NCBI RefSeq assembly: GCF_003790525.1
Contig: NZ_CP033635.1
DNA from: Escherichia coli
GTDB taxonomy: Bacteria > Pseudomonadota > Gammaproteobacteria > Enterobacterales > Enterobacteriaceae
DNA length: 64,000 nucleotides
Reading direction: 5' to 3' (one strand)
The notes below the pieces were generated by a model. The model saw only the letters and a list, made by a program, of their open reading frames with translations. It was not told where the DNA came from and did no database searches. Of the stretch, positions 483 through 20,103 are shown piece by piece. The translations under genes were made by a program, and so were the position numbers. The first letter of the stretch is position 1. Every line of letters starts with the position of its first letter.

Positions 483-491
483 GATGGCACC

Positions 492-953: not shown

Positions 954-2241
954 AATATTTACCTGTGAACTGATAACGGAAACGACCATTTTCCAGTTGT
1001 CTTGTGACAGAGAGAAAACGGACAGATGGCTCGCTGAAGCGCTCTGCCAGCTGGTTAGCCGGGAGTAGCGTCTGTATCTGCAGGTCATACTCTTTCCACG
1101 GTGGCTGGATGATGTTTCCGTTTTCATCAGTGAAGCTGTTATTGACTTCCTGCCAGTCAATCTGCAGTTGAACTGACTGTGCGAGCGTGGTCAGTCGTTC
1201 CTGCAGGTCTCGGGTTTCCGGAAGGGAATCAACCGGGACAGGATTATCCGGGAGCCGGAATGTGACCGGCAGTGCAACGCCGCCAGAGTTCCCTTCAGGC
1301 ATAACAATAAACGGCCGGGTGTCTGTGAGTTCAGTGATGCGCCGGATGAAGGCTGTCACTGTCGTGCCTGCTGTATTGGTGTATGAAGACCGCAGATTAC
1401 CGCTGTTACCGTCAGTAGAACATTCAGCCAGGGTATAACGCCATCCGGCAGCAGACAGTGGCGTCTGGTTCCATGTTGTGCTGCATTGCCGGATAAATTC
1501 TCCGCTCTCAGGCTGCCTCGTCCATGGTGGCGTTATACGTGCTTCAGCTGCTTTCCGGGCGCTTTCTTCCCGTTCCGCTTTTTCCGCCTGCCAGATTTCA
1601 TAACGTTGCCAGCCGTACCACGATGCGCCAAGCAGCGTGATGATGAGTAAGGCTGTCATTAACTGTGGGCCTCTGGACACGGGGAGCAGACGCGCTTCTG
1701 CCGGATGCTTTCTGGTGCTGATCAGGTTTGACAGCGGTAGCGGGATACACCGACTGTCTGGTGAAAAACCGTCAGGTTCGTAGCGTACCCAGCCGTTTTC
1801 CGGTTCCGCATTGAGCATCAGGAACGTGTTGCGGGCTTCCGTGATTTCAGTCGGGGTACCGGTAACGTCGTTAACCAGAATGCCATTAATCACCGATACA
1901 AACGCACAGGTGAGTTCAGCGTCGTCGTTCTCGATGATGAAAATGGCATACCCACCTGATTTGAGTAGCGGGCGTATTAACATTGCCAGTGACAGGCACT
2001 GGCGAATGTTACGGGGGATATCTGCATCCTGACGACTGAGCAGGGCAATCATCATTTCATCACCGTTTTCACCGTCGTGGTTGTGGCAGGAAAGATACAG
2101 TTCTGCGCCCTGTGACCGGGCAAACCGCCGGGCATTCCGGTAACCGGGAGGTATGCTCTTCCAGTCAAGGCCCGCAAGGAATGCCTGTTTACCCGATATC
2201 AGTGAAACCGGACGAATTTTTTTCTGCATTGACCCGTTCAA
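943..2241 (-). CDS. pilO: Type IVB pilus biogenesis protein PilO-like
   Basis: 432-aa ORF with one internal hydrophobic segment; size and position between secretin and pilP match R64 PilO (about 431 aa). Confidence 0.5.
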   Translation of the reverse strand: MNGSMQKKIRPVSLISGKQAFLAGLDWKSIPPGYRNARRFARSQGAELYLSCHNHDGENGDEMMIALLSRQDADIPRNIRQCLSLAMLIRPLLKSGGYAIFIIENDDAELTCAFVSVINGILVNDVTGTPTEITEARNTFLMLNAEPENGWVRYEPDGFSPDSRCIPLPLSNLISTRKHPAEARLLPVSRGPQLMTALLIITLLGASWYGWQRYEIWQAEKAEREESARKAAEARITPPWTRQPESGEFIRQCSTTWNQTPLSAAGWRYTLAECSTDGNSGNLRSSYTNTAGTTVTAFIRRITELTDTRPFIVMPEGNSGGVALPVTFRLPDNPVPVDSLPETRDLQERLTTLAQSVQLQIDWQEVNNSFTDENGNIIQPPWKEYDLQIQTLLPANQLAERFSEPSVRFLSVTRQLENGRFRYQFTGKYYAR

Positions 2242-2252
2242 GGGAACCTCCG

Positions 2253-3878
2253 TCAGATTACGTGCGGTGTGATCAGCACAACCAGAATGGTGTCATCGTC
2301 ACCGCTGTCAGTGCCGCCACCCAGCCCGAAGAATGCCGGGCTGCCGACGCCCTGGCGCACGGATTTGCTGCCGGACTGCCGGAATCCGCTGAGAATGACG
2401 GTCTGACCTGATTTCAGGTCGATGGTCTGGTTGATGGTTTTCAGGTCTACCGTGGGCACCTGTGCCCGGCTGCCGCCGCTCTCGAACACCTCAAAGGTGG
2501 GTTTGTCGGAGAGGTTCATGCTGAAGAGCAGCTGCAGGCTGCGCGCATCCGGCTGAATGAACGGCAGCAGGGTCATGTTGAAGCCGGTGGTGATGGTGGC
2601 GGCGTTCAGGGAGGTGCTGGTCCCGACGTTGGCCGTGGTGTCGGTGGTGACACCTTCGATATAGCCCTGCTGGCTGGCCACCTGCATGGGCACCGGCGTC
2701 ATGTTTTTGGTGACGGCGGAGTTCTGTGTGACCACGCTGACGGTGCCCTGACTGGAGAGCGCCTTCAGGAAGGCCTTCGAGCCGGTGAGCTTACCGTCCA
2801 CAATGGAGACGCCACTGGTGATGATGTCATCGGCGGCACTGCTGAATGCCCCTCCCAGCGTGAGGCCGAGACGTCCGTCGCTGAAGACGGCATTCCAGTC
2901 AATGCCGGCCTGGTCACGGCGGGTTTTTCTGACGCTGAGGACTTCCACGTTCAGCACCACCTGACGTCGCATCTCGCGGTTACGTGCCTCCACAAAACGG
3001 CTGACGGTGTCGAGGACCCGAGGGGTGTCGGTGACGGTGAGAAAGCCGGTGGCAAGCACCATCCGGCCGGTCCCGGGGGTCAGCATGGCACCGACGGCAT
3101 TTTTCAGGTCCTCATAGAGGGTGGACTTCATGTCGACCGTGGTGGTCTGGGTGTTGCTGGCCTCCCCGCTGAGGGTGCCGGCGTTACTGCCGGTACTGCT
3201 GCCGGATGAGGAGGAGGCGGTGCCGCTGACCACCCGGGCGTTGTAGGTCACCTGAGAGTCCATGTAGGTGACCGGGAAGGTGCGTGTCTCCAGCCAGTAA
3301 AAGGTGATGGCGCGCCGGTCACTGTCGTAACGGTACGAGATACCGAGCCGGGAGGCGACGGTATCCAGCAGCTGCCGCAGCCCGGTGGCGCTGAGTTCCG
3401 GCAGGACGGCACCGCCGCCCGGGGGGATGACCTGTGCGCCACTGCCGACGGCGGCCAGCGGCACCATGCCGTTCGGGTCCGGTGCGGGGATTGCGCCTGT
3501 CAGCTGCTGTGTGGGGCCGGTGGTGGCCAGCGCCTGCCAGACGTCGGCGGTGATGGTCACGGGGATACCGCAGCTTCCGGTGATGCGCTGGGCTATCTGC
3601 CGCAGGCTGATATCCCGGCGGGTGTTGATGATGATGGGGCAGCCCGGCAGGCTCTGGTGTGCGGGGCTGACGCTGACAGGGGAGGGGTTGATCCACTGTC
3701 GCGTGGTCTCCGTGACCACCGGCCGGGATTTACGGAGTTCGCCCGCGTGCCGGCGCGCTTTCTCCAGTGTGGCGGTGGCGTCTTTTTCCGTGTTGCTGAT
3801 ACGTTCGGCCGTACCGCAGCCTGACAGCAGCAGGGCGACGGCAGTCAGTGGCAGGAGCATGTGTTGTCTTTTTTTCAT
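2253..3878 (-). CDS. pilN: Type IVB pilus secretin lipoprotein PilN-like
   Basis: Start at 3878 gives MKKRQHMLLPLTAVALLLSGC (lipobox LSGC) preceded by an AAGGA RBS; C-terminus ...TILVVLITPHVI is secretin-like; about 541 aa. Confidence 0.7.
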   Translation of the reverse strand: MKKRQHMLLPLTAVALLLSGCGTAERISNTEKDATATLEKARRHAGELRKSRPVVTETTRQWINPSPVSVSPAHQSLPGCPIIINTRRDISLRQIAQRITGSCGIPVTITADVWQALATTGPTQQLTGAIPAPDPNGMVPLAAVGSGAQVIPPGGGAVLPELSATGLRQLLDTVASRLGISYRYDSDRRAITFYWLETRTFPVTYMDSQVTYNARVVSGTASSSSGSSTGSNAGTLSGEASNTQTTTVDMKSTLYEDLKNAVGAMLTPGTGRMVLATGFLTVTDTPRVLDTVSRFVEARNREMRRQVVLNVEVLSVRKTRRDQAGIDWNAVFSDGRLGLTLGGAFSSAADDIITSGVSIVDGKLTGSKAFLKALSSQGTVSVVTQNSAVTKNMTPVPMQVASQQGYIEGVTTDTTANVGTSTSLNAATITTGFNMTLLPFIQPDARSLQLLFSMNLSDKPTFEVFESGGSRAQVPTVDLKTINQTIDLKSGQTVILSGFRQSGSKSVRQGVGSPAFFGLGGGTDSGDDDTILVVLITPHVI

Positions 3879-3940
3879 GCAGAAATCCTTGTGTGAAACG
3901 TGAAAACAGTGAGCAGAGCAGGGAGGGCAGAAGCGCTTCG

Positions 3941-4012
3941 GGACTGAAGTCTGCGCGTGATGGCGATATATCCGCGGGACATGACCGCGGCCGGATATGC
4001 AGACTTCAGTCC
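3941..4012. promoter_or_regulatory. Nested inverted-repeat structure in pilM-pilN intergenic region
   Basis: Perfect 14-bp inverted repeat GGACTGAAGTCTGC (3941-3954) / GCAGACTTCAGTCC (3999-4012) enclosing inner inverted repeat ATATCCG / CGGATAT and CCGCGG palindromes. Confidence 0.5.
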
Positions 4013-4067
4013 ACAGGCTCCTCACACTGTGCGGGACAGCGAAGGTTAACGGTGCAGTGATGTCCCG

Positions 4068-4505
4068 CTAGTTGAAATAAACAAATGCGCTGTCAGGAAT
4101 GACGGACGGCACGCTGATACCGGTGTCCTGACCTGTGGTGTTCAGCAGTCGCCGCCCCTTCACCCGGCCTGCCAGCGCGGTTTTGTGGGTGATGTCTGCC
4201 AGCGCACCTGCAAGCCCCGGGCGGTCATCCTGCCAGACAAAGACCCGCTGTCCGGCGATGATATGGCGGGTACCGTATACCGGGCGGAAACCCGTGGCGG
4301 TGACGGGGAGCGTGCCACCCCCCGTGCGCTCAGCCGGATGGGTGTACAGCCGGTCGTTAATGCCGTTCATGAGGCGGACCATCTCCCACGCACGTTCACG
4401 CATCTCCGCCTGCTCGCTGTACACGGTGACCCGGTGGGTACTGCTGTTGTGAAACCAGGTCAGCGCCACGGTCAGGGCCATGACCAGGGAGAGCGACCAG
4501 CCCAT
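4068..4505 (-). CDS. pilM: Type IVB pilus protein PilM-like
   Basis: Start at 4505 (MGWSLSLVMALTVALTW, N-terminal hydrophobic) lies 2 nt after the pilL stop; 145 aa, same length as R64 PilM. Confidence 0.45.
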   Translation of the reverse strand: MGWSLSLVMALTVALTWFHNSSTHRVTVYSEQAEMRERAWEMVRLMNGINDRLYTHPAERTGGGTLPVTATGFRPVYGTRHIIAGQRVFVWQDDRPGLAGALADITHKTALAGRVKGRRLLNTTGQDTGISVPSVIPDSAFVYFN

Positions 4506-4507
4506 GG

Positions 4508-5233
4508 TCAGTCTCCCGGTCTGTCGCTGACGTGCACCACACACTGCGTGCTGTTGATGGCTGCATACAGCGGCGTCTGTGCGTCCTGATAGAGACGGAA
4601 GAGTTCACTGAGCGCGTGGCGGAACTCGCCGGTGAAATGCAGCGGCGCATCGATGCTGTAATTGAGTCCGGGGTTCTGCCAGGCCAGCTGCCAGGTGCCA
4701 CCGGCCTGACAGGGAACGGCGGCCACCCACTGCTCAAGACCGGCACGCAGCAGGGTTCCGCGGGCAAGAGTCCAGGTGGTCCGTGCATGCGCCGGTTGCG
4801 GCATGTTTGCTGATTTTTCCGCGGTTTTTTCCTGCAGACTGGTGGTGCCCGGGGTGGCCTGAGACGGACTGAACAGGGTGTTCCGCTCAATACGTACATG
4901 CTTCTTCTCCGTGTCGGTGATGGCGCGGAGCTGATATTTTTTCAGCATGCGTTCCGTAACGTAATTCCACTGGTCATTTCCCTTCCATGACACCGTGCGG
5001 GGCGGCCTGACATCCGGTGCAATGTCAAATGTCCATCCCGGCGGTATCAGTTGCTGCATGGCTTTTTTCAGTGATAACCCTTTACCGTCCCGGGGAATAA
5101 ATTTCAGTGCTCCCGGAGCGCTGCTGACCGTGGACGATGAGGGTGCACTGACCTGAGAAGGTGACGGTGCAGCAAAAAGTGGAACAGAAAATGCCAGCAG
5201 CGGCACAATAAGAAGTGGTTTCAGTGGTGTCAT
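4508..5233 (-). CDS. pilL: Type IVB pilus protein PilL-like (secreted)
   Basis: 241-aa ORF with signal peptide MTPLKPLLIVPLLAFSVPLFA; second gene of the minus-strand operon. Confidence 0.45.
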   Translation of the reverse strand: MTPLKPLLIVPLLAFSVPLFAAPSPSQVSAPSSSTVSSAPGALKFIPRDGKGLSLKKAMQQLIPPGWTFDIAPDVRPPRTVSWKGNDQWNYVTERMLKKYQLRAITDTEKKHVRIERNTLFSPSQATPGTTSLQEKTAEKSANMPQPAHARTTWTLARGTLLRAGLEQWVAAVPCQAGGTWQLAWQNPGLNYSIDAPLHFTGEFRHALSELFRLYQDAQTPLYAAINSTQCVVHVSDRPGD

Positions 5234-5285
5234 ATTATGGTCCTGTATCGCACATTTTTTGTGTTTCCTGAGCCTGTATCCGGTT

Positions 5286-5504
5286 TTATTCCGGCTGAAC
5301 TCTGCTGCATGAGAATGCGGTGACGTTCACTTTCACACTGAACGATTTACCGGCCTCTTTTTCTTTTAAAAACAGCCTGACGCATTCAGGCTCAGTCATC
5401 GGTGTGTTCTGAAAACGCACCCAGGATACCGGTGCACCACCAGGCTTCAGGATGGTGGCTTCAATCCGGTATTTATGCGGTGTGGTGTCTGTTGTTGCTG
5501 TCAT
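5286..5504 (-). CDS. Small hypothetical protein (72 aa), first gene of the pil operon
   Basis: ATG at 5504 preceded by AGGAG at about 7 nt; no recognisable domain. Confidence 0.35.
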   Translation of the reverse strand: MTATTDTTPHKYRIEATILKPGGAPVSWVRFQNTPMTEPECVRLFLKEKEAGKSFSVKVNVTAFSCSRVQPE

Positions 5505-5512
5505 TCATGGCT

Positions 5513-5580
5513 CCTGTTGCCGGTTTCCGGTCCCGGAAAAACAGGCGACATCAGCAACAAGGGGAAAAACGCGATGTCGC
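5513..5580. promoter_or_regulatory. Palindrome cluster upstream of pil operon (candidate operator / oriT-related site)
   Basis: CCTGTT...TTTCCGG-TC-CCGGAAA...AACAGG (5513-5545) and 8-bp inverted repeat GCGACATC / GATGTCGC (5545-5580). Confidence 0.35.
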
Positions 5581-6030
5581 CTGAAAGGTACTGGTGCAGC
5601 GGTGCGTTGTACGGACGCAGGTCCGCACAACCGGAAATACACGGGATGATTCGGTCAGTGTATTTTCGTGTTGTGCGCCTGTACTGATACGGCAGGGTGT
5701 GATGAGTGTTACCTGTGGCTGCAGGCGCGGCACGTCACTCATAACGTAGCATTCTGTTTCCTCCTCAGCCCGGCTTCAGGGCGTTGCCGCAATACCCGAT
5801 TGTTAAAGAGCCTTACCGGCATGGTGTCCGGTGTCACCGCGCGGATAACGATACGGCGGTGTCTGAAGGGATGATGCTGCGGCGCTCTGCACATGGCGAC
5901 GATTAATTCTTTTTGTGTTTCTGAAAATTTATTGCCGGGAAATTTCTGGTGTGACAGGGTGAATTAATTCTGGTCAGCGACGCTCCTGAGAAGGCAGAGT
6001 GCGCTGACATTTCGTGAACGGAGGAATGCC

Positions 6031-7539
6031 ATGTCCCTGAATCCCACCGATGAACAGTCAGCCATCATTCACTGGCAGGGGGAAAAACTGGTGGTGAATG
6101 CCTTTGCCGGTACAGGCAAAACCAGCACACTGGTGCAGTTCGCCGCAGCCTGCCCTGAGAGCCGGATGCTGTATCTGGCCTATAACCGCGCGATTCGTGA
6201 TGAGGCGGAGCGCCGGTTTCCCTTTAATGTGGAGTGCAAAACCTCCCATCAGCTGGCGTATTCGCGGTTCGGAAAGCATTTCCGGCATCGTCTGGTGCCG
6301 GGGCTGTCAGTGACGGATGTAGCGAGAAAACTGAACACCCGCTACTGGACGCTTGCCCGTGTTGCCATGACCGCGCTGAATCAGTTCATCTGTTCGGCGG
6401 ACGTGGCGCCCGGAATGCAGCATATGCCGCCTCCCGACGAGATGAAGGGCATGTCGCCACAGGATGCGCTGCGTGCCGTGCAGATCCTCTGGCATGAAAT
6501 GAGCAATCCGGATGGCAATTTTCCGGTCACTCACGACACCTATCTGAAGCTCTATCAGCTTTCCTCACCGGATCTGTCACGCAGGTGGGATACGATCCTT
6601 TTTGATGAGGCCCAGGATGCGAATCCGGTGACGTCCGCACTGGTGCTGGGGCAGCGGTGCAGGGTGGTACTGGTTGGCGACCGTTACCAGCAGATTTATC
6701 GTTTTCGTGGTGCCAGCGATGCACTGTCGCATCCGGCACTGAACGGGGCGGACCGTCTCTGGCTGACGCAAAGTTTTCGTTTTGGTCCTGCCGTGGCCGG
6801 GGTGGCCAGCCAGTTACTGAAGCGTGCCGGCGAGAGCCGTGAGGTGACCGGCAGGGGCGGGGATGATGAAGTGCTGACGGCAGGTGAAATGCGTGCGCGC
6901 GTGAAGGCAGGGAAGATGACCGGTCACAGGGCGATACTGAGCCGGACGGTGGCCGGTGTGATTGGCACGGCACTGATGGCGGCAATGCGTGGCAGGAAGG
7001 TTTACTGGGTGGGGGGCATTGAAGGCTACAGAACGGAAGCACTGGAAGATCTTTACTGGTTTCAGATGGACATGCCGGAGCGGATGCACAGTGACAGACT
7101 GCGAAAGGACTACCGGAGTTTTGACGAGTACCGTCATATTGCGAAGGTGACGAAGGATGTGGAAATGAATCAGTCCATTCGTCTGCTGGAGCTGTGCTTT
7201 CCGCTGCCGAAGAAACTCGAACTTCTCAGAAAGCACACCGTCACGAATGAACAGGAGGCGGATATCACGGTCTCAACGGCACACCGCAGTAAGGGACTGG
7301 AGTGGGCACTGGTGATACTCGATGATGATTTTCAGGATATCACCGACCCGCTGATAAGCGAGCAGGAGCGGCGTGATGAAACCAATCTGCTCTATGTGGC
7401 GGTCACCCGGGCGCGCAGAACGCTGGTTCTCAATGAGCTCATGCAGCAACTGACGGAAGCTGCCGGCGATGGTGGTGCACCCGGAAACGCGCCGGTGCAG
7501 GGGAAGGAAGACGATGGCGTGGAGGGAGAGGATGTTTAA
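6031..7539 (+). CDS. SF1 (UvrD/Rep-like) DNA helicase
   Basis: 502-aa ORF; Walker A AFAGTGKTS; ILFDEAQD Walker B-like; C-terminal VSTAHRSKGLEW and LLYVAVTRAR motifs typical of UvrD_C; GGAGGAA RBS before the ATG. Confidence 0.75.
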   Translation: MSLNPTDEQSAIIHWQGEKLVVNAFAGTGKTSTLVQFAAACPESRMLYLAYNRAIRDEAERRFPFNVECKTSHQLAYSRFGKHFRHRLVPGLSVTDVARKLNTRYWTLARVAMTALNQFICSADVAPGMQHMPPPDEMKGMSPQDALRAVQILWHEMSNPDGNFPVTHDTYLKLYQLSSPDLSRRWDTILFDEAQDANPVTSALVLGQRCRVVLVGDRYQQIYRFRGASDALSHPALNGADRLWLTQSFRFGPAVAGVASQLLKRAGESREVTGRGGDDEVLTAGEMRARVKAGKMTGHRAILSRTVAGVIGTALMAAMRGRKVYWVGGIEGYRTEALEDLYWFQMDMPERMHSDRLRKDYRSFDEYRHIAKVTKDVEMNQSIRLLELCFPLPKKLELLRKHTVTNEQEADITVSTAHRSKGLEWALVILDDDFQDITDPLISEQERRDETNLLYVAVTRARRTLVLNELMQQLTEAAGDGGAPGNAPVQGKEDDGVEGEDV

Positions 7540-9157
7540 GCGGTTCAGACGTATGCTGCCCGGCACAAAGGTCACGGAGCCAGGCGTGGTCGCGCCGGTG
7601 ATACCGGCAGGGTTTTATGCGCCGCTCACAGCAGAAGCACTGTTATCACCAGAGCACAGGGAACTGAGGCTCAGGCAGGTATGGGATAACAATCCGATGC
7701 CCCGTGATGTATACGACAGGATGTGCCTTGCGCCACTCAGCCGGCTGTTGCTGAACACCCAGAATGTGCCGGCAACACGGGAAGGACGGTGGTCCCGTGC
7801 CGGTGGATTTGGTGATCTGACGGTACTGTACACCACGTATGCCGTTCGTCTGGCAAGAGGGTACATGTTTCCACCGGATGCGACCCCGGAAGACCAGGCG
7901 GCTCAGGCCGCAGTCTGGCATACGGTGATTTTCTGGTCAGCGCTGTTTTACCACCTGCCCCTGCTGGCGCACCTTGAGGGGGAGCTGCTGAGTGGTCGGG
8001 GCTGGCAGCCAGGGATTTCTGTGCCTGACGAACCTTTCCGTTTCCGGTTCAGGAAGACGGCGCCGCAGGGCACGGAAGCGCAACAACTGGCGGCCCTGAC
8101 TGCCGGCACGCTGTTACCGGACGGCGCAACGGCCTGGCTTGTGACGGCGCCGGGGGCGCTGCAGAATCTGGCCGGGGCGCTCTGGCATCAGCATCCCGGG
8201 ATGGCGCTGATTCGTGATGTGCTGCAGGAAGCGGCAAGGCAGACAGAGAGTCCGCTGAATACCTGCGCTGTCACTGCGCCGGTTACTGCGGAGGCTTCAG
8301 CAGACATCCGTCCTGCTGACCCGGTGGTGACCGGCAGCACGGACAGTGTGATGGCAGTCACTGAGGTGCAGCCGGCAGAGGAGGTGAAGACTGAGAGCGT
8401 GCAGACAGAGACTGAAGGTGGTGGTGAGTCCGCCGGAGCGTCAGAGGTGCCGTCCGCACAGCAGGAACTGACGGTTCAGACAGCGCCAGTGGTGACGGCA
8501 GATGATGAAGCGGTCAGTGCTTCTCCTGCGGATCAGGACACAGCAATGCTGCTGAGTCTTTTTTCAGCAGATGAGTCCGAAACTGCTGAACGGGATAATG
8601 GGGATGTGGTGATGCTGGCTGATGAGGAAGAAGCGCAGGATCTCACCGATGGACCGGATGAAGGCGATTCGTCTCCGGGCAGTATTCATGAATCGCCGTA
8701 TCTGGTGGAGAGTGACGCGTCGGTTAATCAGTCCGTATCCGGGGAATACCGCGCAACAGAAGTGAATCCGCTTACCGGAGATGATCCTGATTTAAAGGGA
8801 GAGACGTTTTTGGACTGGCTTAAAGCAGGGCTGAACAGTGGTGAGATATCATTTAACCAGAAAGGCGACAAAATACACATTGTTGCAGGACTGGTTTTCC
8901 TGCCGGTACCAGGCATTTTCTTTGATTACCTGAAAGCAGTGCAGCTTCCCGGGGACAAACGCCCGATTGTTCAGTCATCATTTGAGCGGCTCTGTATCAA
9001 TAAACGCCGTGATGACCAGCGTTTTTATTTTGCTCGTATTGCTGAGGAACCCGGGAACTGTGCACGTTACAAAACAGTCAAAGGTTACCTGGTCAAAGGA
9101 CGTAGTCTGATGCATGAAAGTAAACTGAAAGACAGTCCTTATCTTTTTATTTCGTGA
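7514..9157 (+). CDS. Putative conjugative relaxase (TraI_2 / MOBH-like) with acidic low-complexity linker
   Basis: ORF 7469..9157; start chosen at ATG 7514 (AAGGAAG RBS), overlapping helicase stop; C-terminal segment (IHIVAGLVFLPVPGIFFDYLK...) resembles TraI_2_C; family assignment is from memory. Confidence 0.5.
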   Translation: MAWRERMFKRFRRMLPGTKVTEPGVVAPVIPAGFYAPLTAEALLSPEHRELRLRQVWDNNPMPRDVYDRMCLAPLSRLLLNTQNVPATREGRWSRAGGFGDLTVLYTTYAVRLARGYMFPPDATPEDQAAQAAVWHTVIFWSALFYHLPLLAHLEGELLSGRGWQPGISVPDEPFRFRFRKTAPQGTEAQQLAALTAGTLLPDGATAWLVTAPGALQNLAGALWHQHPGMALIRDVLQEAARQTESPLNTCAVTAPVTAEASADIRPADPVVTGSTDSVMAVTEVQPAEEVKTESVQTETEGGGESAGASEVPSAQQELTVQTAPVVTADDEAVSASPADQDTAMLLSLFSADESETAERDNGDVVMLADEEEAQDLTDGPDEGDSSPGSIHESPYLVESDASVNQSVSGEYRATEVNPLTGDDPDLKGETFLDWLKAGLNSGEISFNQKGDKIHIVAGLVFLPVPGIFFDYLKAVQLPGDKRPIVQSSFERLCINKRRDDQRFYFARIAEEPGNCARYKTVKGYLVKGRSLMHESKLKDSPYLFIS

Positions 9158-9210
9158 GTGGAGGGGAGGCTATTATTGCAGGAATGTGAATGAAATGTAA
9201 AAGGTAATCA

Positions 9211-10200
9211 ATGAAAATAAATAATGCGGATAAGTGCTGGAATGATTTGATGGATGAGTTTTTTTTCTGCCGTTCAGTACGTGAAGCTACGGAGTGGAGC
9301 TACAGAAAGGTGCTGAACGGATTCCGTAAGTTTGTTGGCGGGACTCTGTTACCGGAAGATATCCGACAACAACATGTCAGGGAGTGGCGACGGGAGGTCC
9401 TGAAAAACCAGAAACGTTCAACTCATACATGGAACAACAAGGTACGCCATATGCGCGCTATCTTCAGTTTTGCTTCCTCATCTGAACTCCTGCATTTAAG
9501 TTGTAACCCGTTTGAGGGTATGAGCGTCAGACAGGAAAAGAAACGCAAAAAAACACTGACCCGGAAACAAATAAAACGCATCCTGCTGGTCCTTGAGCAG
9601 TTTCAGGAGGATGAAATGAACCTGAAGATGCACTGGAAGTGCGCCATTCGTCCGGCCTGGTACTGGATTATTGTGGTTAACACACTTCGCTTTACGGGGA
9701 TGAGGCTGAATCAGCTGCTGCATCTGCGCCTGCGGGATGTTAATCCTGAAGAACGGTGGATTGATTTATGCTCTGAAGGCAGCAAGACACATCATGAGTG
9801 GCGGATCCCGATGGTCAGTCATCTGGTTCCGGGGATAACCAGGCTGATGGATGAAGCGGTGAAACGTGGAGCCACGCCTGATGATTATCTTTTCCACTAT
9901 CATCGCTATGCTTTGCCTGTGTCTGAAGCATTATCGGTGAGCGGACCTCCGGAAGAGCAGAAGGTCAAAGGTTTTTTCCGGCGTCTGTCGAAAGAGTGTG
10001 GTTTTCAGGTATCTGCACATCGTTTCAGACACACTCTGGCAAGTACTCTGATGGCGGCACCGGAACGAAATCTGTACATGGTGAAAACCATGCTGGGTCA
10101 CCGGAATGTTTCAACGACACTGGAATATGTGGAGATGGATCTGAAGGGAACAGCACGTATACTTGAGGCCGAACTGTCAAAACTGACAGACGATCTTTAA
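9211..10200 (+). CDS. int: Tyrosine recombinase / integrase (329 aa)
   Basis: RBS AAGGTAA; catalytic-looking residues in LRFTGMR, HRFRHT, GHRNVSTT and LEYVE (R, H-x-x-R, H, Y); adjacent to tRNA-Phe 3' end. Confidence 0.85.
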   Translation: MKINNADKCWNDLMDEFFFCRSVREATEWSYRKVLNGFRKFVGGTLLPEDIRQQHVREWRREVLKNQKRSTHTWNNKVRHMRAIFSFASSSELLHLSCNPFEGMSVRQEKKRKKTLTRKQIKRILLVLEQFQEDEMNLKMHWKCAIRPAWYWIIVVNTLRFTGMRLNQLLHLRLRDVNPEERWIDLCSEGSKTHHEWRIPMVSHLVPGITRLMDEAVKRGATPDDYLFHYHRYALPVSEALSVSGPPEEQKVKGFFRRLSKECGFQVSAHRFRHTLASTLMAAPERNLYMVKTMLGHRNVSTTLEYVEMDLKGTARILEAELSKLTDDL

Positions 10201-10396
10201 TCAGGTGATTGCTTACAGTTGTTGACAACATGAAAAACCGTTGCAATCATAATGAATGATCGAGAAAGGGAGCATGCGACCAACATGCTCCCCAATCGAG
10301 AAAATGAGATGGCATGACCTAGACTCACGACATCTTGCACCTTCCCGATGACACCCGTCAGGGTTCTCACTCCTGACCAGTGGCTTTGATGTAAGG

Positions 10397-10472
10397 TGGT
10401 GCCCGGAGGCGGAATCGAACCACCGACACGGGGATTTTCAATCCCCTGCTCTACCGACTGAGCTATCCGGGC
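10397..10472 (-). tRNA. pheV: tRNA-Phe (GAA), pheV locus, variant T-stem
   Basis: Reverse complement reads GCCCGGATAGCTCAGTCGGTAGAGCAGGGGATTGAAAATCCCCGTGTCGGTGGTTCGATTCCGCCTCCGGGCACCA; matches E. coli tRNA-Phe except four compensatory T-stem changes. Confidence 0.9.
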
Positions 10473-10577
10473 AACGGGGCGCATTAAACCTGATTCGCCT
10501 CGTCTCGTCAATCAAATTTCTTCAATTTACTGCAGACTGCACAATCTATCATCACTTTGCCGCTATTGCACGCATTG

Positions 10578-11306
10578 TCAGGCAAACCAGGCGGTCCAGG
10601 CGGCGGAAAGCGGCATTGCCAGAAGGAGTGCTGGAAGCATGTTGACCACCGGGAACATTTTAATGCCACAGATGCGTAATCCGGTTGCCAGCAGCAATAA
10701 ACCGCCTACGGCGCTGAAGTCTGCCATCATCGACGGTGTGGTCAGCGGTAATATCAGCGCGGCAGCCCACGCCAGTGTTAACTGGATGATCAGTAATGGA
10801 ATGCTAATCACCGACACCGCAATACCCAGCGAGCAGGCGAAGATCATCGCCGTAAAGAAATCGAGAAATGACTTGGCGATTAAAATACTCGGATCGCCGG
10901 TCATCCCTTCGTTCATCGCCCCGAAGATCCCGGTGCCGCTGGCGCAAAACAGGACAATAATCGCGACATAATTCTGAATAAAAGATTCATGCGCTGGCTT
11001 CTTAGGTGAGTGGCGAAACAGATTTTGTGCTTTGGTGACCGCGGTATTGACCCCTTTTTCCAGCAGACACATTTCGCCGATTAATGCACCGAGTAAGGTT
11101 GCTAAAACCATCGCCGGAAGGTTGGCGCATTTCACCACCAGTAAAATACCAATCCCCAGCGATGCCAGACCAAAAATTGATGTCATGGAGACGCGGATAC
11201 GTTCCGGTAAGCGTTGACTAAGGAGTGCACCGAGAACGCCACCCAGTAATACTGCACTTGCGTTGATAAAAGGACCGATGACCACAAGAGTTCCTGTTAG
11301 CTGCAT
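10578..11306 (-). CDS. yqgA: DUF554 inner membrane protein YqgA
   Basis: 242-aa polytopic membrane ORF next to pheV as in K-12. Confidence 0.85.
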   Translation of the reverse strand: MQLTGTLVVIGPFINASAVLLGGVLGALLSQRLPERIRVSMTSIFGLASLGIGILLVVKCANLPAMVLATLLGALIGEMCLLEKGVNTAVTKAQNLFRHSPKKPAHESFIQNYVAIIVLFCASGTGIFGAMNEGMTGDPSILIAKSFLDFFTAMIFACSLGIAVSVISIPLLIIQLTLAWAAALILPLTTPSMMADFSAVGGLLLLATGLRICGIKMFPVVNMLPALLLAMPLSAAWTAWFA

Positions 11307-11677
11307 TGTCTGATTTTCTTATTATGACCGTTTGGCTCCTTCGATGGCTTGTTTGTTCGCAAAGTCCTGGCTTGCACGCTCTGGTGAAAGGTGCCATGAT
11401 TGCGCGAATTTTCTCCTCTCTGTACGGAGTTTGCCCGATGCACGCCACCTCCTTACATTCTCTCGCTTATCGCCGTTTCGCGCGAAACTCCTCCCTTTTT
11501 CTGCTCATGCGGTGAGGTTAACGCACGCTCACTGCAGGACAACAGTAAAATCAGAGCGTTTCTGCTTTTACTGATGTCTGGCGGTCGGAGCTGGTGACCA
11601 GTTTGACCCATATCTCGTGGGGCAGGGTTTTTCACCTTGTCCGGTATTCTTACTTCCCCGAAACGGGTTTTGCGCTT

Positions 11678-13813
11678 ATGAAATCAATGAATATTGCCGC
11701 CAGTAGTGAACTGGTATCCCGACTTTCTACTCATCGCCGCGTGGTGGCGTTGGGAGATACTGATTTTACGGACGTCGCGGCAGTCGTCATTACCGCTGCG
11801 GATAGTCGCAGTGGCATTCTTGCGTTGCTTAAGCGCACCGGTTTTCATCTACCGGTGTTTTTGTATTCCGAACATGCTGTTGAATTACCTGCGGGCGTTA
11901 CGGCGGTAATTAACGGCAACGAGCAGCAGTGGCTGGAGCTGGAATCCGCAGCCTGTCAGTATGAAGAGAATTTGCTGCCACCGTTTTATGACACGCTGAC
12001 GCAGTACGTTGAGATGGGTAATAGCACCTTTGCTTGCCCTGGGCATCAACATGGTGCGTTCTTTAAAAAGCATCCTGCCGGACGCCATTTTTACGATTTC
12101 TTTGGTGAGAACGTCTTTCGCGCCGATATGTGTAACGCTGACGTAAAATTGGGCGATCTGCTTATTCATGAAGGATCGGCGAAAGATGCGCAGAAATTCG
12201 CAGCCAAAGTCTTTCATGCCGATAAAACCTATTTTGTGCTGAACGGCACATCGGCAGCGAATAAAGTGGTGACGAATGCGCTGTTAACGCGTGGCGATCT
12301 GGTGCTCTTCGACCGTAACAACCATAAGTCGAATCATCACGGCGCGCTGATTCAGGCGGGGGCGACGCCGGTCTATCTGGAAGCTTCACGTAACCCGTTT
12401 GGTTTCATTGGCGGTATTGATGCGCACTGTTTTAATGAAGAGTATCTGCGCCAGCAAATTCGCGACGTTGCGCCAGAAAAAGCCGACCTGCCGCGCCCGT
12501 TTCGCCTGGCGATTATTCAGCTGGGAACCTATGACGGCACTGTCTATAACGCCCGTCAGGTGATCGATACCGTTGGGCATCTGTGTGATTACATTCTGTT
12601 TGATTCCGCATGGGTCGGTTACGAACAGTTTATCCCGATGATGGCGGATAGCTCGCCGCTGCTGTTAGAACTTAACGAAAACGATCCGGGGATCTTTGTG
12701 ACCCAGTCGGTGCACAAACAGCAGGCGGGATTCTCACAGACGTCGCAGATCCATAAAAAAGATAACCATATCCGTGGACAGGCGCGTTTTTGCCCGCATA
12801 AGCGGTTGAATAATGCCTTTATGCTCCATGCTTCTACCAGCCCGTTCTATCCGCTGTTCGCCGCGCTGGACGTTAACGCCAAAATTCATGAAGGGGAGAG
12901 TGGGCGTCGGCTGTGGGCGGAGTGCGTTGCGTTGGGGATTGAAGCCCGGAAGGCGATTCTTGCGCGCTGTAAGCTGTTCCGCCCGTTTATCCCGCCCGTT
13001 GTTGATGGCAAATTGTGGCAGGATTATCCGACGTCAGTGTTAGCCAGCGACCGCCGTTTTTTCAGTTTTGAGCCGGGGGCGAAGTGGCACGGCTTTGAAG
13101 GATATGCCGCGGATCAGTATTTTGTTGATCCGTGCAAGCTGTTACTCACCACGCCGGGTATCGATGCCGAAACCGGCGAATATAGCGATTTTGGCGTTCC
13201 GGCGACGATTCTGGCGCACTATCTGCGTGAGAACGGCATTGTGCCGGAGAAGTGCGATCTCAATTCCATTCTGTTCTTATTAACTCCGGCGGAAAGCCAC
13301 GAGAAGCTGGCACAACTGGTGGCGATGCTGGCGCAGTTTGAACAGCATATTGAGGATGACTCGCCGCTGGTTGAGGTGTTGCCGAGCGTTTATAACAAAT
13401 ATCCGGTGCGTTATCGCGACTACACCCTGCGCCAGTTGTGTCAGGAGATGCACGATCTGTATGTCAGTTTCGACGTCAAAGACCTACAAAAAGCGATGTT
13501 CCGCCAGCAGAGTTTCCCGTCAGTGGTGATGAATCCCCAGGATGCGCATAGCGCTTATATTCGCGGTGAAGTGGAGTTGGTGCGGATTCGTGATGCCGAA
13601 GGGCGAATTGCGGCAGAAGGGGCGTTACCTTATCCACCTGGCGTGCTTTGCGTGGTACCCGGGGAAGTCTGGGGTGGGGCGGTTCAACGTTATTTCCTTG
13701 CACTGGAAGAAGGGGTGAATTTGTTGCCGGGATTTTCGCCGGAGCTGCAAGGTGTCTATAGCGAAACCGATGCGGATGGCATGAAACGGTTGTACGGTTA
13801 TGTGTTGAAGTAA
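11678..13813 (+). CDS. speC: Ornithine decarboxylase, constitutive
   Basis: 711 aa from MKSMNIAASSELV...; ORF-track start at 11594 is an upstream extension. Confidence 0.95.
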   Translation: MKSMNIAASSELVSRLSTHRRVVALGDTDFTDVAAVVITAADSRSGILALLKRTGFHLPVFLYSEHAVELPAGVTAVINGNEQQWLELESAACQYEENLLPPFYDTLTQYVEMGNSTFACPGHQHGAFFKKHPAGRHFYDFFGENVFRADMCNADVKLGDLLIHEGSAKDAQKFAAKVFHADKTYFVLNGTSAANKVVTNALLTRGDLVLFDRNNHKSNHHGALIQAGATPVYLEASRNPFGFIGGIDAHCFNEEYLRQQIRDVAPEKADLPRPFRLAIIQLGTYDGTVYNARQVIDTVGHLCDYILFDSAWVGYEQFIPMMADSSPLLLELNENDPGIFVTQSVHKQQAGFSQTSQIHKKDNHIRGQARFCPHKRLNNAFMLHASTSPFYPLFAALDVNAKIHEGESGRRLWAECVALGIEARKAILARCKLFRPFIPPVVDGKLWQDYPTSVLASDRRFFSFEPGAKWHGFEGYAADQYFVDPCKLLLTTPGIDAETGEYSDFGVPATILAHYLRENGIVPEKCDLNSILFLLTPAESHEKLAQLVAMLAQFEQHIEDDSPLVEVLPSVYNKYPVRYRDYTLRQLCQEMHDLYVSFDVKDLQKAMFRQQSFPSVVMNPQDAHSAYIRGEVELVRIRDAEGRIAAEGALPYPPGVLCVVPGEVWGGAVQRYFLALEEGVNLLPGFSPELQGVYSETDADGMKRLYGYVLK

Positions 13814-13815
13814 GA

Positions 13816-13853
13816 ATAAAAAAACGGGTCACCTTCTGGCGACCCGTTTTTCT
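13816..13853. terminator. Bidirectional rho-independent terminator (speC / nupG)
   Basis: A-run, stem CGGGTC / GACCCG with 10-nt loop, then TTTTTC. Confidence 0.75.
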
Positions 13854-13861
13854 TTGCGTAA

Positions 13862-15118
13862 TTAGTGGCTAACCGTCTGTGTACCTGTCGGGACACGAAC
13901 GTGTTTATATTTGAACATCGCCATGAACGCGAAGGCCAGAACCACGGAGTAACCTGCGAAAATCAGCCATACGGTCTGCCAGTCGGTAATGCCGTTTTGG
14001 GTGTACATCTCAACCACTTTACCGCTCACGATGCCGCCGAGGATACAGCCGAAGCCGTTGGTCATCATCAGGAACATCCCCTGCGCGCTGGCGCGAATTG
14101 CCGGGCTAACTTCTTTTTCGACAAACACCGAACCAGAGATGTTGAAGAAGTCGAATGCGCAACCGTAAACGATCATCGACAGTACCAGCAGTACAGTACC
14201 GAACGGAGTCGGGTCGCCGTAAGCAAACAGAGCAAAACGCAGGATCCACGCCACAATACTGATCATCATTACGTTCTTAATACCGTAGCGGCTTAAGAAG
14301 AACGGGATGGTCAGAATGAACAGGGTTTCAGAGATCTGTGAAATCGACATGATGATTGACGCATGCTGCACGATGAAGCTGCTGGCAAACATCGGATCTT
14401 TGTCGAAGCTGTGCAGGAAGGTATTACCGAACATGTTGGTAATCTGCAGTTCCGCGCCCAGCAGCATTGAGAAGATGAAGAAGATTGCCATACGCTTGTT
14501 TTTAAACAGCGCGAATGCATCGAGGCCCAGCAGGGTTGTCCAGCTCTGATTCGCTTGCTGTTTAGCAACCGGAATATGCGGCAGAGTCAGGGTAAACAGA
14601 ACCAGAACGGCGGAAAGGGCTGCGCCAATATACAGCTGCATGTGGCTTAATTCGAAGCCAGACAGGCTCACCACCCACATTGCCATGATAAAGCCGATGG
14701 TGCCCCAGATACGGATTGGCGGGAAGTCAGTAACGATATCCATCCCGGCATTTTGCAGGCGATAGTAAGAGATGGTGTTGATTAACCCAAGCGTTGGCAT
14801 ATAAGCAAACGAGTTAATCAATATCACAAGGAACATCGCTTCCGGCGTCGTGACCTGTGCCGCCATGAACAGCGTGATAGCGCCAATGGTGTGGCAAATG
14901 GCATATACCCATTTCGCACTTAACCATTTGTCGGCCACAATCCCCAGCAGCGCAGGCATAAAGACCGCGGCGATACCCAGTGAACTATAAACTGCGCCAA
15001 TAGAAGCACCGTCAAACTTCAGGGTAACAAACATATAGGAGCCGAGGGTCGTCAGCCAACTTCCCCACAGACAGAACTGCAGAAAAGAGAGGATTTTCAG
15101 CTGCAGCTTAAGATTCAT
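13862..15118 (-). CDS. nupG: Nucleoside:H+ symporter NupG
   Basis: 418 aa from MNLKLQLKILSFLQF...; MFS topology. Confidence 0.95.
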   Translation of the reverse strand: MNLKLQLKILSFLQFCLWGSWLTTLGSYMFVTLKFDGASIGAVYSSLGIAAVFMPALLGIVADKWLSAKWVYAICHTIGAITLFMAAQVTTPEAMFLVILINSFAYMPTLGLINTISYYRLQNAGMDIVTDFPPIRIWGTIGFIMAMWVVSLSGFELSHMQLYIGAALSAVLVLFTLTLPHIPVAKQQANQSWTTLLGLDAFALFKNKRMAIFFIFSMLLGAELQITNMFGNTFLHSFDKDPMFASSFIVQHASIIMSISQISETLFILTIPFFLSRYGIKNVMMISIVAWILRFALFAYGDPTPFGTVLLVLSMIVYGCAFDFFNISGSVFVEKEVSPAIRASAQGMFLMMTNGFGCILGGIVSGKVVEMYTQNGITDWQTVWLIFAGYSVVLAFAFMAMFKYKHVRVPTGTQTVSH

Positions 15119-15319
15119 GTTAATTTCCTCACATCGTGATGCGGATGAGTGTTTGAAAAAGCACATTTGACCGTGCGAGATGATGGGATTCTATCAACTT
15201 CGCGGACTGGTTTTTTGTTACCTGTGGCAAATAATTGCAAACATTCCCAATTTGCAAAACGAAATTGTGATGTGGATAACATTTTTGCCCCTGAGCATCG
15301 TCAGGGGCGGTTAGTGGAA

Positions 15320-16426
<1,107 letters not shown>

Positions 16427-16463
16427 TTATGCAAGTTGCCGGAGGCGTGCTCCGGCACTGTTT

Positions 16464-16742
<279 letters not shown>

Positions 16743-16766
16743 TCATCCTCTTTATCGACTCACGTG

Positions 16767-17819
16767 CTAAACCGGCGCGCCAGTGCGTAACTGCTGTAAC
16801 AAACGCTCCACGGGAGCCGCCAGGCCAACTGACGGCGGTTGCGCTAAGTTATACCAGAGCGCATTGCCTTCATCCATGCAGCCGGTGAATGACGACACGG
16901 GAAGCCACATAGGCACAATATCTAAGTGGAAATGGCTGAAGGTATGCCGAAACGCGGTCAGTTGCGTCAGGTTATCGGCAGCAATCTGCCGTTGCGCCAG
17001 CCACTGCCGCAAACTTTCTTCGTCGGCAAACTGTGGGAAACAGTATAAACCGCCCCACAATCCACTCGGCGGGCGTTGCGCCAGCAATACCTCATCATCA
17101 TGCTGTAACAGTAAAAAGTAACCCGTGCGCTCCGGTAGCGTCTGCTTTGGTTTTTTGCCCGGATAAAGCGACCAGCTATTGTTGGCGGCGGCAATACACC
17201 CGTTTTGTAGCGGACAGAGCGAACATTTCGGCTTCGAGCGCGTACAAATCATCGCGCCCAAATCCATCATCGCCTGATTAAACCGTTCCACGCCGACCGC
17301 GGGCGTCACCTGCGCGCTCAAACTCCATAGTTTATTCTCGACCTCTTTTTTCCCAGGCCAGCCGCTTACAGCATAGCAGCGCGCCAGCACCCGTTTGACG
17401 TTACCGTCGAGAATCGGAAAGTGCTTACCCAGAGAAAGCGAGAGAATCGCACCTGTGGTGGAACGCCCGACGCCCGGTAACGCCGCGACTTCTTCAAAGG
17501 TTTCCGGGAATTTACCGCCGTGTAAGGTCGCCACTTGTTGTGCCGCTTTATGCAGATTGCGCGCGCGGGCGTAATAGCCAAGCCCGGTCCACAAGTGGAG
17601 AACTTCGTCGAGCGGCGCATTGGCGAGATCGGTCACCGTTGGGAAGCGCGCCATAAAGCGTTCAAAATAGGGGATAACGGTCGCAACCTGAGTTTGTTGC
17701 AACATCACTTCTGAGAGCCATACTTTGTAGGGCGTCTTGTCAATTTGCCAGGGCAGCGTTTTCCGCCCGTATTTATCGTACCAGTCCAGAACCTGGGCTG
17801 AAAATTGCGACGCTTGCAT
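16767..17819 (-). CDS. mutY: Adenine DNA glycosylase MutY
   Basis: 350 aa from [20 protein letters not shown]...; 4Fe-4S cysteine cluster region present. Confidence 0.95.
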
Positions 17820-17979
17820 GGTCACCGAATTCACTGTTATTGGGGGCAAGATTGCAGCACAGCGACGGCAGGGTGTAAACCGGAACTTTCCGCAGCCACG
17901 GCCTTATCATGCTTGCATCCGGCAACTAACTTTGGATAATGCCCGTTTTCAGAACACTTTCACAAGCGACTAAATCTTT

Positions 17980-18699
17980 ATGAAAAACGACGTCATCTCA
18001 CCGGAATTTGATGAAAACGGCCGCCCGCTGCGCCGTATCCGTAGTTTTGTGCGCCGCCAGGGGCGACTGACCAAAGGCCAGGAACATGCGCTGGAAAACT
18101 ACTGGCCGGTGATGGGCGTTGAGTTCAGCGAAGATATGCTGGATTTCCCTGCGCTTTTTGGCCGTGAAGCGCCGGTGACGCTTGAGATTGGTTTCGGCAT
18201 GGGGGCGTCGCTGGTGGCAATGGCTAAAGATCGCCCCGAGCAGGACTTCCTCGGCATTGAAGTGCATTCACCGGGCGTTGGTGCGTGCCTGGCTTCTGCG
18301 CATGAAGAGGGCTTAAGCAACCTGCGCGTGATGTGTCACGATGCGGTTGAAGTGCTGCATAAAATGATTCCTGACAATTCATTGCGCATGGTGCAGCTCT
18401 TTTTCCCTGACCCGTGGCACAAAGCGCGCCATAATAAACGCCGTATCGTTCAGGTGCCGTTTGCCGAACTGGTAAAAAGCAAACTGCAACTGGGGGGCGT
18501 ATTCCATATGGCGACCGACTGGGAACCTTATGCGGAACATATGCTTGAAGTGATGTCTTCTATTGACGGTTATAAAAACCTGTCAGAGAGCAATGATTAC
18601 GTACCGCGTCCGGCATCACGTCCGGTGACGAAATTTGAACAACGTGGTCATCGTCTTGGTCACGGAGTATGGGACTTAATGTTCGAGAGGGTGAAATAA
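17980..18699 (+). CDS. trmB: tRNA (guanine-N7)-methyltransferase
   Basis: 239 aa; divergent from mutY as in K-12. Confidence 0.9.
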
Positions 18700-19025
18700 T
18701 GGCAAAGAACCGTAGCCGTCGTCTGCGTAAAAAAATGCACATCGACGAATTCCAGGAATTAGGATTTTCGGTGGCATGGCGATTCCCGGAAGGTACATCG
18801 GAAGAACAGATTGATAAAACCGTTGATGACTTTATTAACGAGGTTATCGAACCGAACAAACTGGCCTTTGACGGCAGCGGTTATCTGGCCTGGGAAGGTC
18901 TGATCTGCATGCAGGAAATCGGCAAATGCACCGAAGAACATCAGGCGATTGTGCGTAAGTGGCTGGAAGAGCGCAAACTGGGCGAGGTACGCACCAGCGA
19001 ACTTTTCGACGTTTGGTGGGACTAA
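18699..19025 (+). CDS. yggL: DUF469 protein YggL
   Basis: 108 aa from [12 protein letters not shown]...; start overlaps trmB stop (TAATG). Confidence 0.85.
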   Translation: MAKNRSRRLRKKMHIDEFQELGFSVAWRFPEGTSEEQIDKTVDDFINEVIEPNKLAFDGSGYLAWEGLICMQEIGKCTEEHQAIVRKWLEERKLGEVRTSELFDVWWD

Positions 19026-19057
19026 GAAAACATACGGGCGATGACAAATGCAAAACT

Positions 19058-19140
19058 GCCTGATGTGCTACGCTTATCAGGCCTATAAAGATGCACGATC
19101 GAGTAGGCTGGATAAGGCGTTTACGCCGCATCCGGCATGG
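19058..19140. repeat. REP/BIME element (two REP units)
   Basis: GCCTGATGTGCTACGCTTATCAGGCCTA and GGCTGGATAAGGCGTTTACGCCGCATCCGGCA palindromic units typical of E. coli REP. Confidence 0.8.
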
Positions 19141-19208
19141 AAAACGCGCACTTTGTTATCAATCTGGGGCCAGCAAATGCTGGCCTGATTTGTTCTTGAG
19201 GGAAGACT

Positions 19209-19928: not shown

Positions 19929-20103
19929 TCCTCTATTTTAAGACGGCATAATACTTTTTTATGCCGTTTAATTCTTCGTTTTGTTACCTGCCTCTAACTT
20001 TGTAGATCTCCAAAATATATTCACGTTGTAAATTGTTTAACGTCAAATTTCCCATACAAAGCTAAGGGATAATGCGTAGCGTTCACGTAACTGGAGGAAT
20101 GAA

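Follow-up and report, generated by a model that had tools for sequence, protein, structure and literature searches.

An ICE integrating in tRNA-Phe very probably supplied the 3′ half of a hybrid pheV gene in Escherichia coli

The question raised by the locus described here is how a tRNA-Phe gene of E. coli came to differ from its canonical form on both strands of the T-stem while keeping its base pairs. The window analysed is a stretch of 64,000 nt, in which ARAGORN finds a single tRNA, a tRNA-Phe (GAA) at 10397-10472 on the minus strand. The strand is a detail absent from an earlier note on this DNA, the rest of whose observation was accurate. In the sense of the tRNA, the gene reads GCCCGGATAGCTCAGTCGGTAGAGCAGGGGATTGAAAATCCCCGTGTC GGTGG TTCGATT CCGCC TCCGGGCACCA, and the canonical gene of a K-12-like strain (L134) reads ...GTGTC CTTGG TTCGATT CCGAG TCCGGGCACCA. 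There are exactly four differences, at tRNA positions 49, 50, 64 and 65 (window 10424, 10423, 10409 and 10408), which change C49-G65 to G49-C65 and U50-A64 to G50-C64, just as the earlier note had described them. The canonical form is the best copy in 5,357 of 5,429 matching E. coli records.

The variant has the properties expected of a tRNA-Phe gene, with a GAA cloverleaf above the Rfam gathering threshold. Its score against Rfam RF00005 is 69.1 bits, compared with 68.3 bits for the canonical E. coli copy and a threshold of 29. Both forms are predicted to fold as a cloverleaf, with a minimum free energy of −37.1 kcal/mol for the variant and −34.1 kcal/mol for the canonical gene, making the variant slightly more stable. 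An artificial half-swap that combines the variant bases at positions 49 and 50 with the canonical bases at positions 64 and 65 gave −34.7 kcal/mol, and the T-arm was gone from the predicted fold. We infer that the hybrid gene is expressed and functional as a tRNA.

The window covers the speC-yqgA-pheV region of E. coli, and positions 9400-11900 correspond to the pheV locus (speC, yqgA, tRNA-Phe) in every matching genome; together with the ARAGORN call, the Rfam score and the sequence itself, these flanks identify the gene as pheV. The host gene yqgA, called from its open reading frame and from the annotation of matching genomes, lies 5′ of pheV at 10578-11306 on the minus strand, and ordinary E. 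coli sequence continues through this flank (yqgA, speC) as far as the tRNA. Only a few dozen genomes have the segment that follows the tRNA on its 3′ side. This segment belongs to the integrase end of a SPI-7/PAPI-1/ICEEc2-type conjugative element (ICE), which occupies window positions 1-10396. Thus, the earlier note was right to place an element 3′ of the tRNA, but the element is an ICE of a known type rather than a generic island.

Between the tRNA and the first ICE gene is an arm (10201-10396, from the integrase stop codon to the tRNA 3′ end) that starts CCTTACATCAAAGCC in the sense of the tRNA; the junction is 100% identical in 29 genomes. Convergent on the tRNA is a XerC/D-like tyrosine recombinase of 329 aa (9211-10200, plus strand), supported by its open reading frame and by annotation; its matches to the XerA, XerC and XerD models of NCBIfam are weak and fall below the equivalog cut-offs, and it is annotated as site-specific integrase WP_001696146.1 in GF4 and TUM1886. 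The integrase is preceded by a MobH-like relaxase of the PFGI-1 class (7469-9157, plus strand), annotated as TraI domain-containing, which scores 193.1 bits against TIGR03760 (“ICE relaxase, PFGI-1 class”; cut-off 161.4), and by a UvrD-like helicase (6031-7539, plus strand) recognized from its open reading frame, the GF4 annotation and weak helicase matches. Type IVb pilus genes (TcpQ-like, pilM, pilN, pilO2 and others), identified from open reading frames and the GF4 annotation, lie at 492-5233 on the minus strand. The GC content of the pilN/pilO2 region (2001-5000) is 0.62-0.63, compared with ~0.51 in the chromosomal flank, which fits a foreign element.

The ICE genes inside the window are those of the pil, helicase, relaxase and integrase end only, and the rest of the element was read from GF4, with which window positions 1-31902 are collinear at 99.0% identity; no complete genome is identical to the window, the best being 99.2% identical over positions 1-20000. 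According to its annotation, the full GF4 element of ~76 kb carries SPI-7-type dnaB, ParA/ParB, replication proteins of the STY4528/STY4534 family, traD, a T4SS and TIGR037xx ICE genes. The element therefore has the XerC/D-type recombinase at the tRNA-proximal end and the MobH/TraI relaxase of the PFGI-1 class that mark SPI-7/PAPI-1/ICEEc2-type ICEs, and, through the collinear GF4 annotation, the type IVb pilus, the ICE-type T4SS and the ParA/ParB/DnaB module. It is an ICE of the SPI-7/PAPI-1/pKLC102 family.

Evidence that the variant belongs with the ICE came from its distribution across E. coli. A 100% match to the variant was found in 72 of 5,426 complete genomes; in all other matching records, the best copy was 94.7% identical, which corresponds to the canonical gene, and an intermediate with one to three differences was the best copy in none of the 5,429 records. 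The identical junction of tRNA and ICE arm was present in 29 genomes, some with the ICE at pheV and some at pheU, and all 29 had the variant. The remaining variant genomes represent other SPI-7-type junction classes, with integrases 46-48% identical (aa) to that of the window. Island-free sites were assessed using a query in which the variant tRNA was fused to the island-free K-12 flank. At junctions of the island-free type at pheV, the variant occurred in 0 of 2,425 genomes; the best identity was 98.6%, the gap being the four T-stem differences. Hence the observation that the earlier note had said would count against it, island-free strains with the identical variant, was not made in any of these genomes. 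Moreover, the same ICE, with the identical integrase WP_001696146.1, is accompanied by the variant at both loci: pheU in TUM1886, and pheV in the window, GF4 and GPEC1035. The variant is likewise found at both pheU and pheV with the type-B ICE. Occurrence of the variant at two loci with the same ICE is hard to reconcile with a host-derived T-arm.

If the ICE brought in a new 3′ half, the original one should be found at its far end. A search of the window for a second copy of the canonical 3′ end, allowing up to three mismatches, matched only the tRNA itself, because the window starts inside the ICE and the far end lies outside it. Near-identical ICE copies of other complete genomes, which serve as proxies for the window's own far end, allowed the displaced half to be read: directly in GF4, AR_0089, YZLc1-3 and TUM9803, which carry type A (the window type), and in SI-NP020, which carries type B. 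In these proxy genomes, the ICE is flanked by direct repeats of ~50 bp that consist of the 3′ part of the tRNA gene. The hybrid gene forms the att junction at the tRNA-proximal ICE end, and its att identity block extends over tRNA positions 27-76 (10397-10446, minus strand), the same 50 nt being present at the distal ICE end in other genomes. Distal copies begin at position 27 in GF4, AR_0089, YZLc1-3, TUM9803 and SI-NP020, and at position 28 in NCTC9112 and rl0044. An att core that reaches the T-arm, and that is longer than the cores of P4-type islands, had been predicted from the tRNA sequence alone; both parts of the prediction agree with a block of ~50 nt, compared with 19-23 nt for P4-type elements (PMC11537424).

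The distal copies are of the canonical, host type. In GF4, the partial copy lies beside the ICE parA gene and reads GGGGATTGAAAATCCCCGTGTC-CTTGG-TTCGATT-CCGAG-TCCGG-CACCA, that is, positions 27-76 with a canonical T-arm and one G lost; it is followed by a flank that resembles the pheV terminator, similar but not identical to that of K-12. The copy is canonical and intact in YZLc1-3, followed by K-12-like empty-site bases (the native terminator stem), and in AR_0089, followed by a P4-type arm (AATTCATATC...) and intP4, the usual direct neighbours of pheV. It is also canonical and intact in TUM9803, where a P4-type arm and a second intP4 follow. In SI-NP020, the copy is canonical with one G deleted, and K-12-like empty-site bases follow. 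About 28 type-A genomes share the distal junction, with identity values, from which the T-arm type is inferred, that fit a canonical T-arm only. A variant proximal gene together with a canonical distal copy, seen in all type-A genomes examined except TUM9803 (canonical at both ICE ends), indicates that the host 3′ half moved to the far ICE end and that the ICE gave a new one, in agreement with the earlier proposal that the element supplies the 3′ segment of the tRNA. The matching partial copy that the earlier note looked for at the distal end is also present, in the proxy genomes. The same note took a canonical T-arm at that end as grounds for rejecting the idea; this part does not hold, since a displaced host half is what the integration model predicts there. 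Reciprocal products of this kind are those expected of conservative site-specific recombination.

The distal copies also place the exchange. At position 27 they are of the element type (T in NCTC9112 and rl0044), and at positions 49-65 they are of the host type; the crossover therefore lies within positions 28-48. This strand-exchange interval covers the anticodon stem-loop and the variable region (10425-10445, minus strand). The ICE and E. coli are identical over positions 28-48, which bound the crossover no further. On the 3′ side, positions 49-76 (10397-10424, minus strand), which hold all four substitutions, are necessarily ICE-derived. The crossover most likely falls in the anticodon loop, by analogy with other integrases, for which the att block extends between the anticodon stem and the CCA end (bioRxiv 10.1101/2020.11.02.365908).

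Three things were observed directly, namely the hybrid gene, the canonical half displaced to the distal end and the link to the ICE at both pheV and pheU, and they lead to the model that we consider very probable: the recombinant pheV gene arose when an ICE of the SPI-7/PAPI-1/ICEEc2 type integrated by site-specific recombination between its attP and the host tRNA-Phe gene. The tyrosine recombinase would join attP, which contains a copy of tRNA-Phe positions 27-76, to the host gene, with strand exchange somewhere in positions 28-48. All sequence 3′ of the crossover, namely the whole T-arm, the 3′ acceptor strand and CCA, would then be ICE DNA, and the original host 3′ half would be shifted ~76 kb, to the far ICE end. 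Under this model, attP would read ...TATGACAT-GGGGATTGAAAATCCCCGTGTC-GGTGG-TTCGATT-CCGCC-TCCGGGCACCA-CCTTACATC... and attB would be canonical. The 3′ half of attP would be of the G49-C65/G50-C64 type, which looks native elsewhere in the Gammaproteobacteria, rather than the C49-G65/U50-A64 type of E. coli. With both T-stem strands coming from one donor, pairing would be kept automatically, and the compensation would have been inherited as a block rather than evolved in place.

Additional support for a foreign origin of the 3′ half came from a scan of one genome per species for variant positions 44-76, which found at least 120 loci. These loci belonged to Vibrio, Aliivibrio, Photorhabdus, Xenorhabdus, Arsenophonus, Marinobacter, Alcanivorax, Marinobacterium, Idiomarina and others, and a genome often had two or three of them. 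Among the matches listed, at least 36 full-length copies are identical to the window gene at 76/76 positions (Alcanivorax, Marinobacter, Marinobacterium and Xenorhabdus mauleonii), and at least 60 further full-length copies differ only by A28-U42 (Vibrio and Photorhabdus). The variant thus appears to be the ordinary tRNA-Phe of many Gammaproteobacteria, where the genes look native. Since both T-stem strands would have been inherited together from a working tRNA-Phe, compensation in the T-stem needs no special explanation.

The matches listed also include at least about 11 partial copies that start at positions 27-30. These partial 3′ copies (L013, L042, L055, L069, L070, L074, L080, L107, L114, L116 and L128) come from Marinobacter, Marinobacterium, Alcanivorax, Xenorhabdus and Photorhabdus. 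They look like the far ends of integrated elements, and the att architecture seems widespread. Homologues of the integrase (44-48% aa identity) lie beside tRNA-Phe genes in Xenorhabdus, Photorhabdus and Pantoea stewartii, and ParA homologues accompany partial copies in Xenorhabdus (59% aa) and in Photorhabdus (73%, over a fragment of 60 aa where the locus ends). Among the partial copies, homologues of the ICE ParA are present only by L069 and L107, and an integrase homologue is present by L070. A Marinobacter partial copy of the A28/C42 type (L042) was considered for narrowing the crossover and was set aside, no related integrase or ParA having been found in that locus. In Pantoea stewartii CCUG 26359, the tRNA-Phe gene next to a related integrase (45% aa; L039, 1488-1563) has the 5′ end GCCCGAA... 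and the 3′ end ...TCCGGGCACCA. These ends would place A6 opposite C67, a mismatch in the acceptor stem, and the gene may be an uncompensated hybrid of host and ICE.

Interpretation is less straightforward for a small set of genomes. The closest relatives of the integrase adjoin a canonical tRNA, namely those of NCTC9112 (81% aa) and of UMNK88, RM11911 and 8178 (64% aa), and their arms have the same opening bases as the window's, the rest of the arm being diverged. In the loci of UMNK88, NCTC9112, RM11911, 8178 and rl0044 (L008-L011, L137 and L138; integrases 64-81% aa), the T-arm is canonical at both ICE ends. With canonical tRNAs beside such close integrase relatives, the attP allele does not follow the phylogeny of the integrase, and attP alleles may be converted into one another between ICE lineages. 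In TUM9803 (L132 6001-6022, L140, L141 6972-7047 and L142 ~1501-1550), P4-type islands flank the same ICE, with the identical integrase, on both sides. The ICE has a canonical 23-nt remnant beside its integrase and a canonical copy of positions 27-76 beside parA, pheV is canonical as well, and the variant T-arm is nowhere in this array. Two single-event models of TUM9803, P4 integration by a crossover in the T-loop and P4 integration by a crossover at the 3′ end, were considered and rejected; neither reproduces the array. In DSM 103246 (L005 4001-4100 and L133), the variant tRNA is followed directly by a P4-type arm and intP4, without the ICE. This strain looks like the scar of an AR_0089-type tandem array from which the ICE was lost by exchange 3′ of position 65.

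These genomes bear on an alternative in which the crossover falls 3′ of the T-arm, at positions 66-76, so that the variant would have been left by an earlier type-B or type-C ICE and the present ICE, with a canonical attP, would have inserted behind it. The junctions of TUM9803 and DSM 103246 would fit an exchange near the 3′ end, the closest integrase relatives combine a canonical tRNA with the same opening arm bases, and other E. coli ICE lineages also have the variant. Nevertheless, this alternative is improbable. It predicts that positions 27-65 should be of ICE origin in the distal copy and of host origin in the tRNA, whereas type-A distal copies have a host-type T-arm and then the native terminator or a P4-type GI, as a displaced host half would. 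It also demands that each of 29 independent carriers, at pheV and pheU, had the variant beforehand, when none of the 2,425 empty pheV sites has it.

To account for TUM9803 and DSM 103246, further recombination steps have to be assumed, or else a second site of crossover 3′ of the T-arm. The poorly fitting genomes suggest that recombination occasionally takes place at other points of the 50-nt repeat, and they do not overturn the model of exchange within positions 28-48. We consider it conceivable, though rather doubtful, that the att block resolves in two places, the usual one at positions 28-48 and an occasional second one 3′ of the T-arm, by the integrase or by host recombination. If this were true, ICE lineages could swap T-arms of the E. 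coli type and the foreign type in attP, which would account for the canonical attP in close relatives. Loss of the ICE would then leave pheV or pheU with a heritable 4-nt scar, as in DSM 103246, and the T-arm would mark past occupancy.

Import of a chromosomal segment by homologous recombination or gene conversion, for instance through ICE-driven Hfr-like transfer, could also replace the gene with no exchange inside the tRNA. Such ICEs can mobilise chromosomal DNA from pheV and pheU (PMC13127887), and the TUM9803 array looks like the product of additional recombination. We regard this explanation as highly unlikely, given that the yqgA/speC flank is normal E. coli up to the tRNA, that the switch from host to foreign sequence falls within the 50-nt att block, and that the reciprocal product, a canonical distal half, is present as the signature of conservative site-specific recombination. 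An ordinary host polymorphism, with two compensatory pair changes arising by mutation and selection independently of any island, is just as improbable and is effectively refuted: compensatory double substitutions in tRNA stems do happen in evolution and the variant scores as a good tRNA, but the four changes give 76/76 identity to the tRNA-Phe of other genera, no intermediate with one to three differences was the best copy in the 5,429 records, none of the island-free pheV junctions has the variant, which sits at pheU or pheV according to the position of the ICE, and its carriers are scattered across human, bovine and poultry isolates.

There are close parallels between the integration model and systems already described. 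ICEEc2, from E. coli BEN374, is the described E. coli member of the SPI-7/PAPI-1/pKLC102 family (PMC6761156, PMC13127887). ICEEc2 and ICEKp2 are reported to excise (PMC6761156), and MG1655 is reported to receive ICEEc2-type ICEs, which occupy pheV and pheU, by transfer (PMC13127887). ICEEc2 and ICEKp2 (PAPI-1/pKLC102/PFGI-1 family, tRNA-Phe) share with the window ICE the insertion at pheV/pheU in E. coli, a XerC/D-like integrase, a MobH/PFGI-1-class relaxase and a type IVb pilus, and ICEEc2-type ICEs are frequent in poultry isolates, as here. The likeness is one of type and does not establish the window ICE as ICEEc2 itself. ICEPm1, ICEPm2 and ICEPm3 of Proteus mirabilis (SPI-7 family) have the same gene repertoire as the full GF4 element and target tRNA-PheV/tRNA-PheU. 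ICEPm1 and ICEPm2 have 52-bp repeats, of which 51 bp lie within tRNA-Phe (PMC11278526), so the ICEPm repeats of ~52 bp are close in length to the 50-51 nt found here. One important difference is that the Proteus repeats are nearly identical (one difference, in ICEPm2), whereas the ICE half and the E. coli half are told apart here by four T-stem positions, and it is by these that the hybrid can be recognized.

P4-type GI-pheV elements share the pheV target and a partial copy of the tRNA 3′ end at the far end, and they lie in tandem with this ICE in AR_0089 and TUM9803. Their repeats are 19-23 bp and start in the T-loop (PMC11537424), while that of this ICE has 50 nt and begins at position 27. 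Their integrase is P4-like, ~420 aa, in the orientation of the tRNA and directly 3′ of pheV; that of the window has 329 aa, is XerC/D-like and is convergent. A P4-type origin of the variant was considered and rejected: P4 repeats begin at position 54, and 3,459 of the 3,460 genomes with the sampled P4 arm are canonical, DSM 103246 being the only one with the variant.

The block found here matches the anticodon-loop class of integration sublocations (Williams 2002, as summarized in bioRxiv 10.1101/2020.11.02.365908), in which att identity begins in the 5′ strand of the anticodon stem and reaches the 3′ end, as do positions 27/28-76 here, and the element restores a complete tRNA by giving the 3′ part. 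Exchange in that class occurs in the 7-nt loop; here it is bounded to positions 28-48, with the loop as the most likely site. The same preprint describes att blocks from the anticodon loop to CCA for some integrase groups.

When ICEs of this known family integrate in tRNA-Phe, a hybrid gene is the ordinary outcome; the phenomenon is already known and has little importance beyond annotation. The locus illustrates clearly how an integrating element can remake its target tRNA using a 3′ half of its own, and the foreign-type half shows that the attP allele has its match in the tRNA-Phe of other Gammaproteobacteria, not of Escherichia. The rebuilding of a target tRNA by an integrating element that contributes the 3′ end is textbook knowledge. 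For annotation, GGTGG/CCGCC in E. coli pheV or pheU is a four-base marker of the insertion of a SPI-7/ICEEc2-type ICE or, rarely, of its scar. Mutagenesis of tRNAs in the Uhlenbeck laboratory reportedly placed pairs 49-65 and 50-64 among the T-stem pairs that set affinity for EF-Tu; if so, insertion of the ICE might make a small adjustment to one of the host's two tRNA-Phe genes.

Pipelines that treat pheV/pheU as invariant, or that call the displaced half a tRNA, are open to correction. In more than 20 genomes, RefSeq/PGAP annotates the displaced 3′ half together with ICE sequence as a 78-nt “tRNA-Ser” (“tRNA-OTHER” in ECOR29), for example at L135 1501-1578 (AR_0089), L136 1553-1630 (YZLc1-3) and L142 1501-1578 (TUM9803). 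Neither ARAGORN nor Rfam, at E-values up to 1, finds a tRNA there, and the “tRNA-Ser” is almost certainly a misannotated att remnant. Displaced or remnant 3′ copies also show a recurrent deletion of a single G (TCCGG-CACCA), seen at L003 45107-45156 (GF4), L138 (rl0044), L139 (SI-NP020), L132 6001-6022 and L133 ~3181-3204. The same deletion is listed for attR remnants of P4-type GI-pheV elements (PMC11537424, Table 1), and it could be either a remnant allele shared by descent or the result of recurrent slippage in the G-run.
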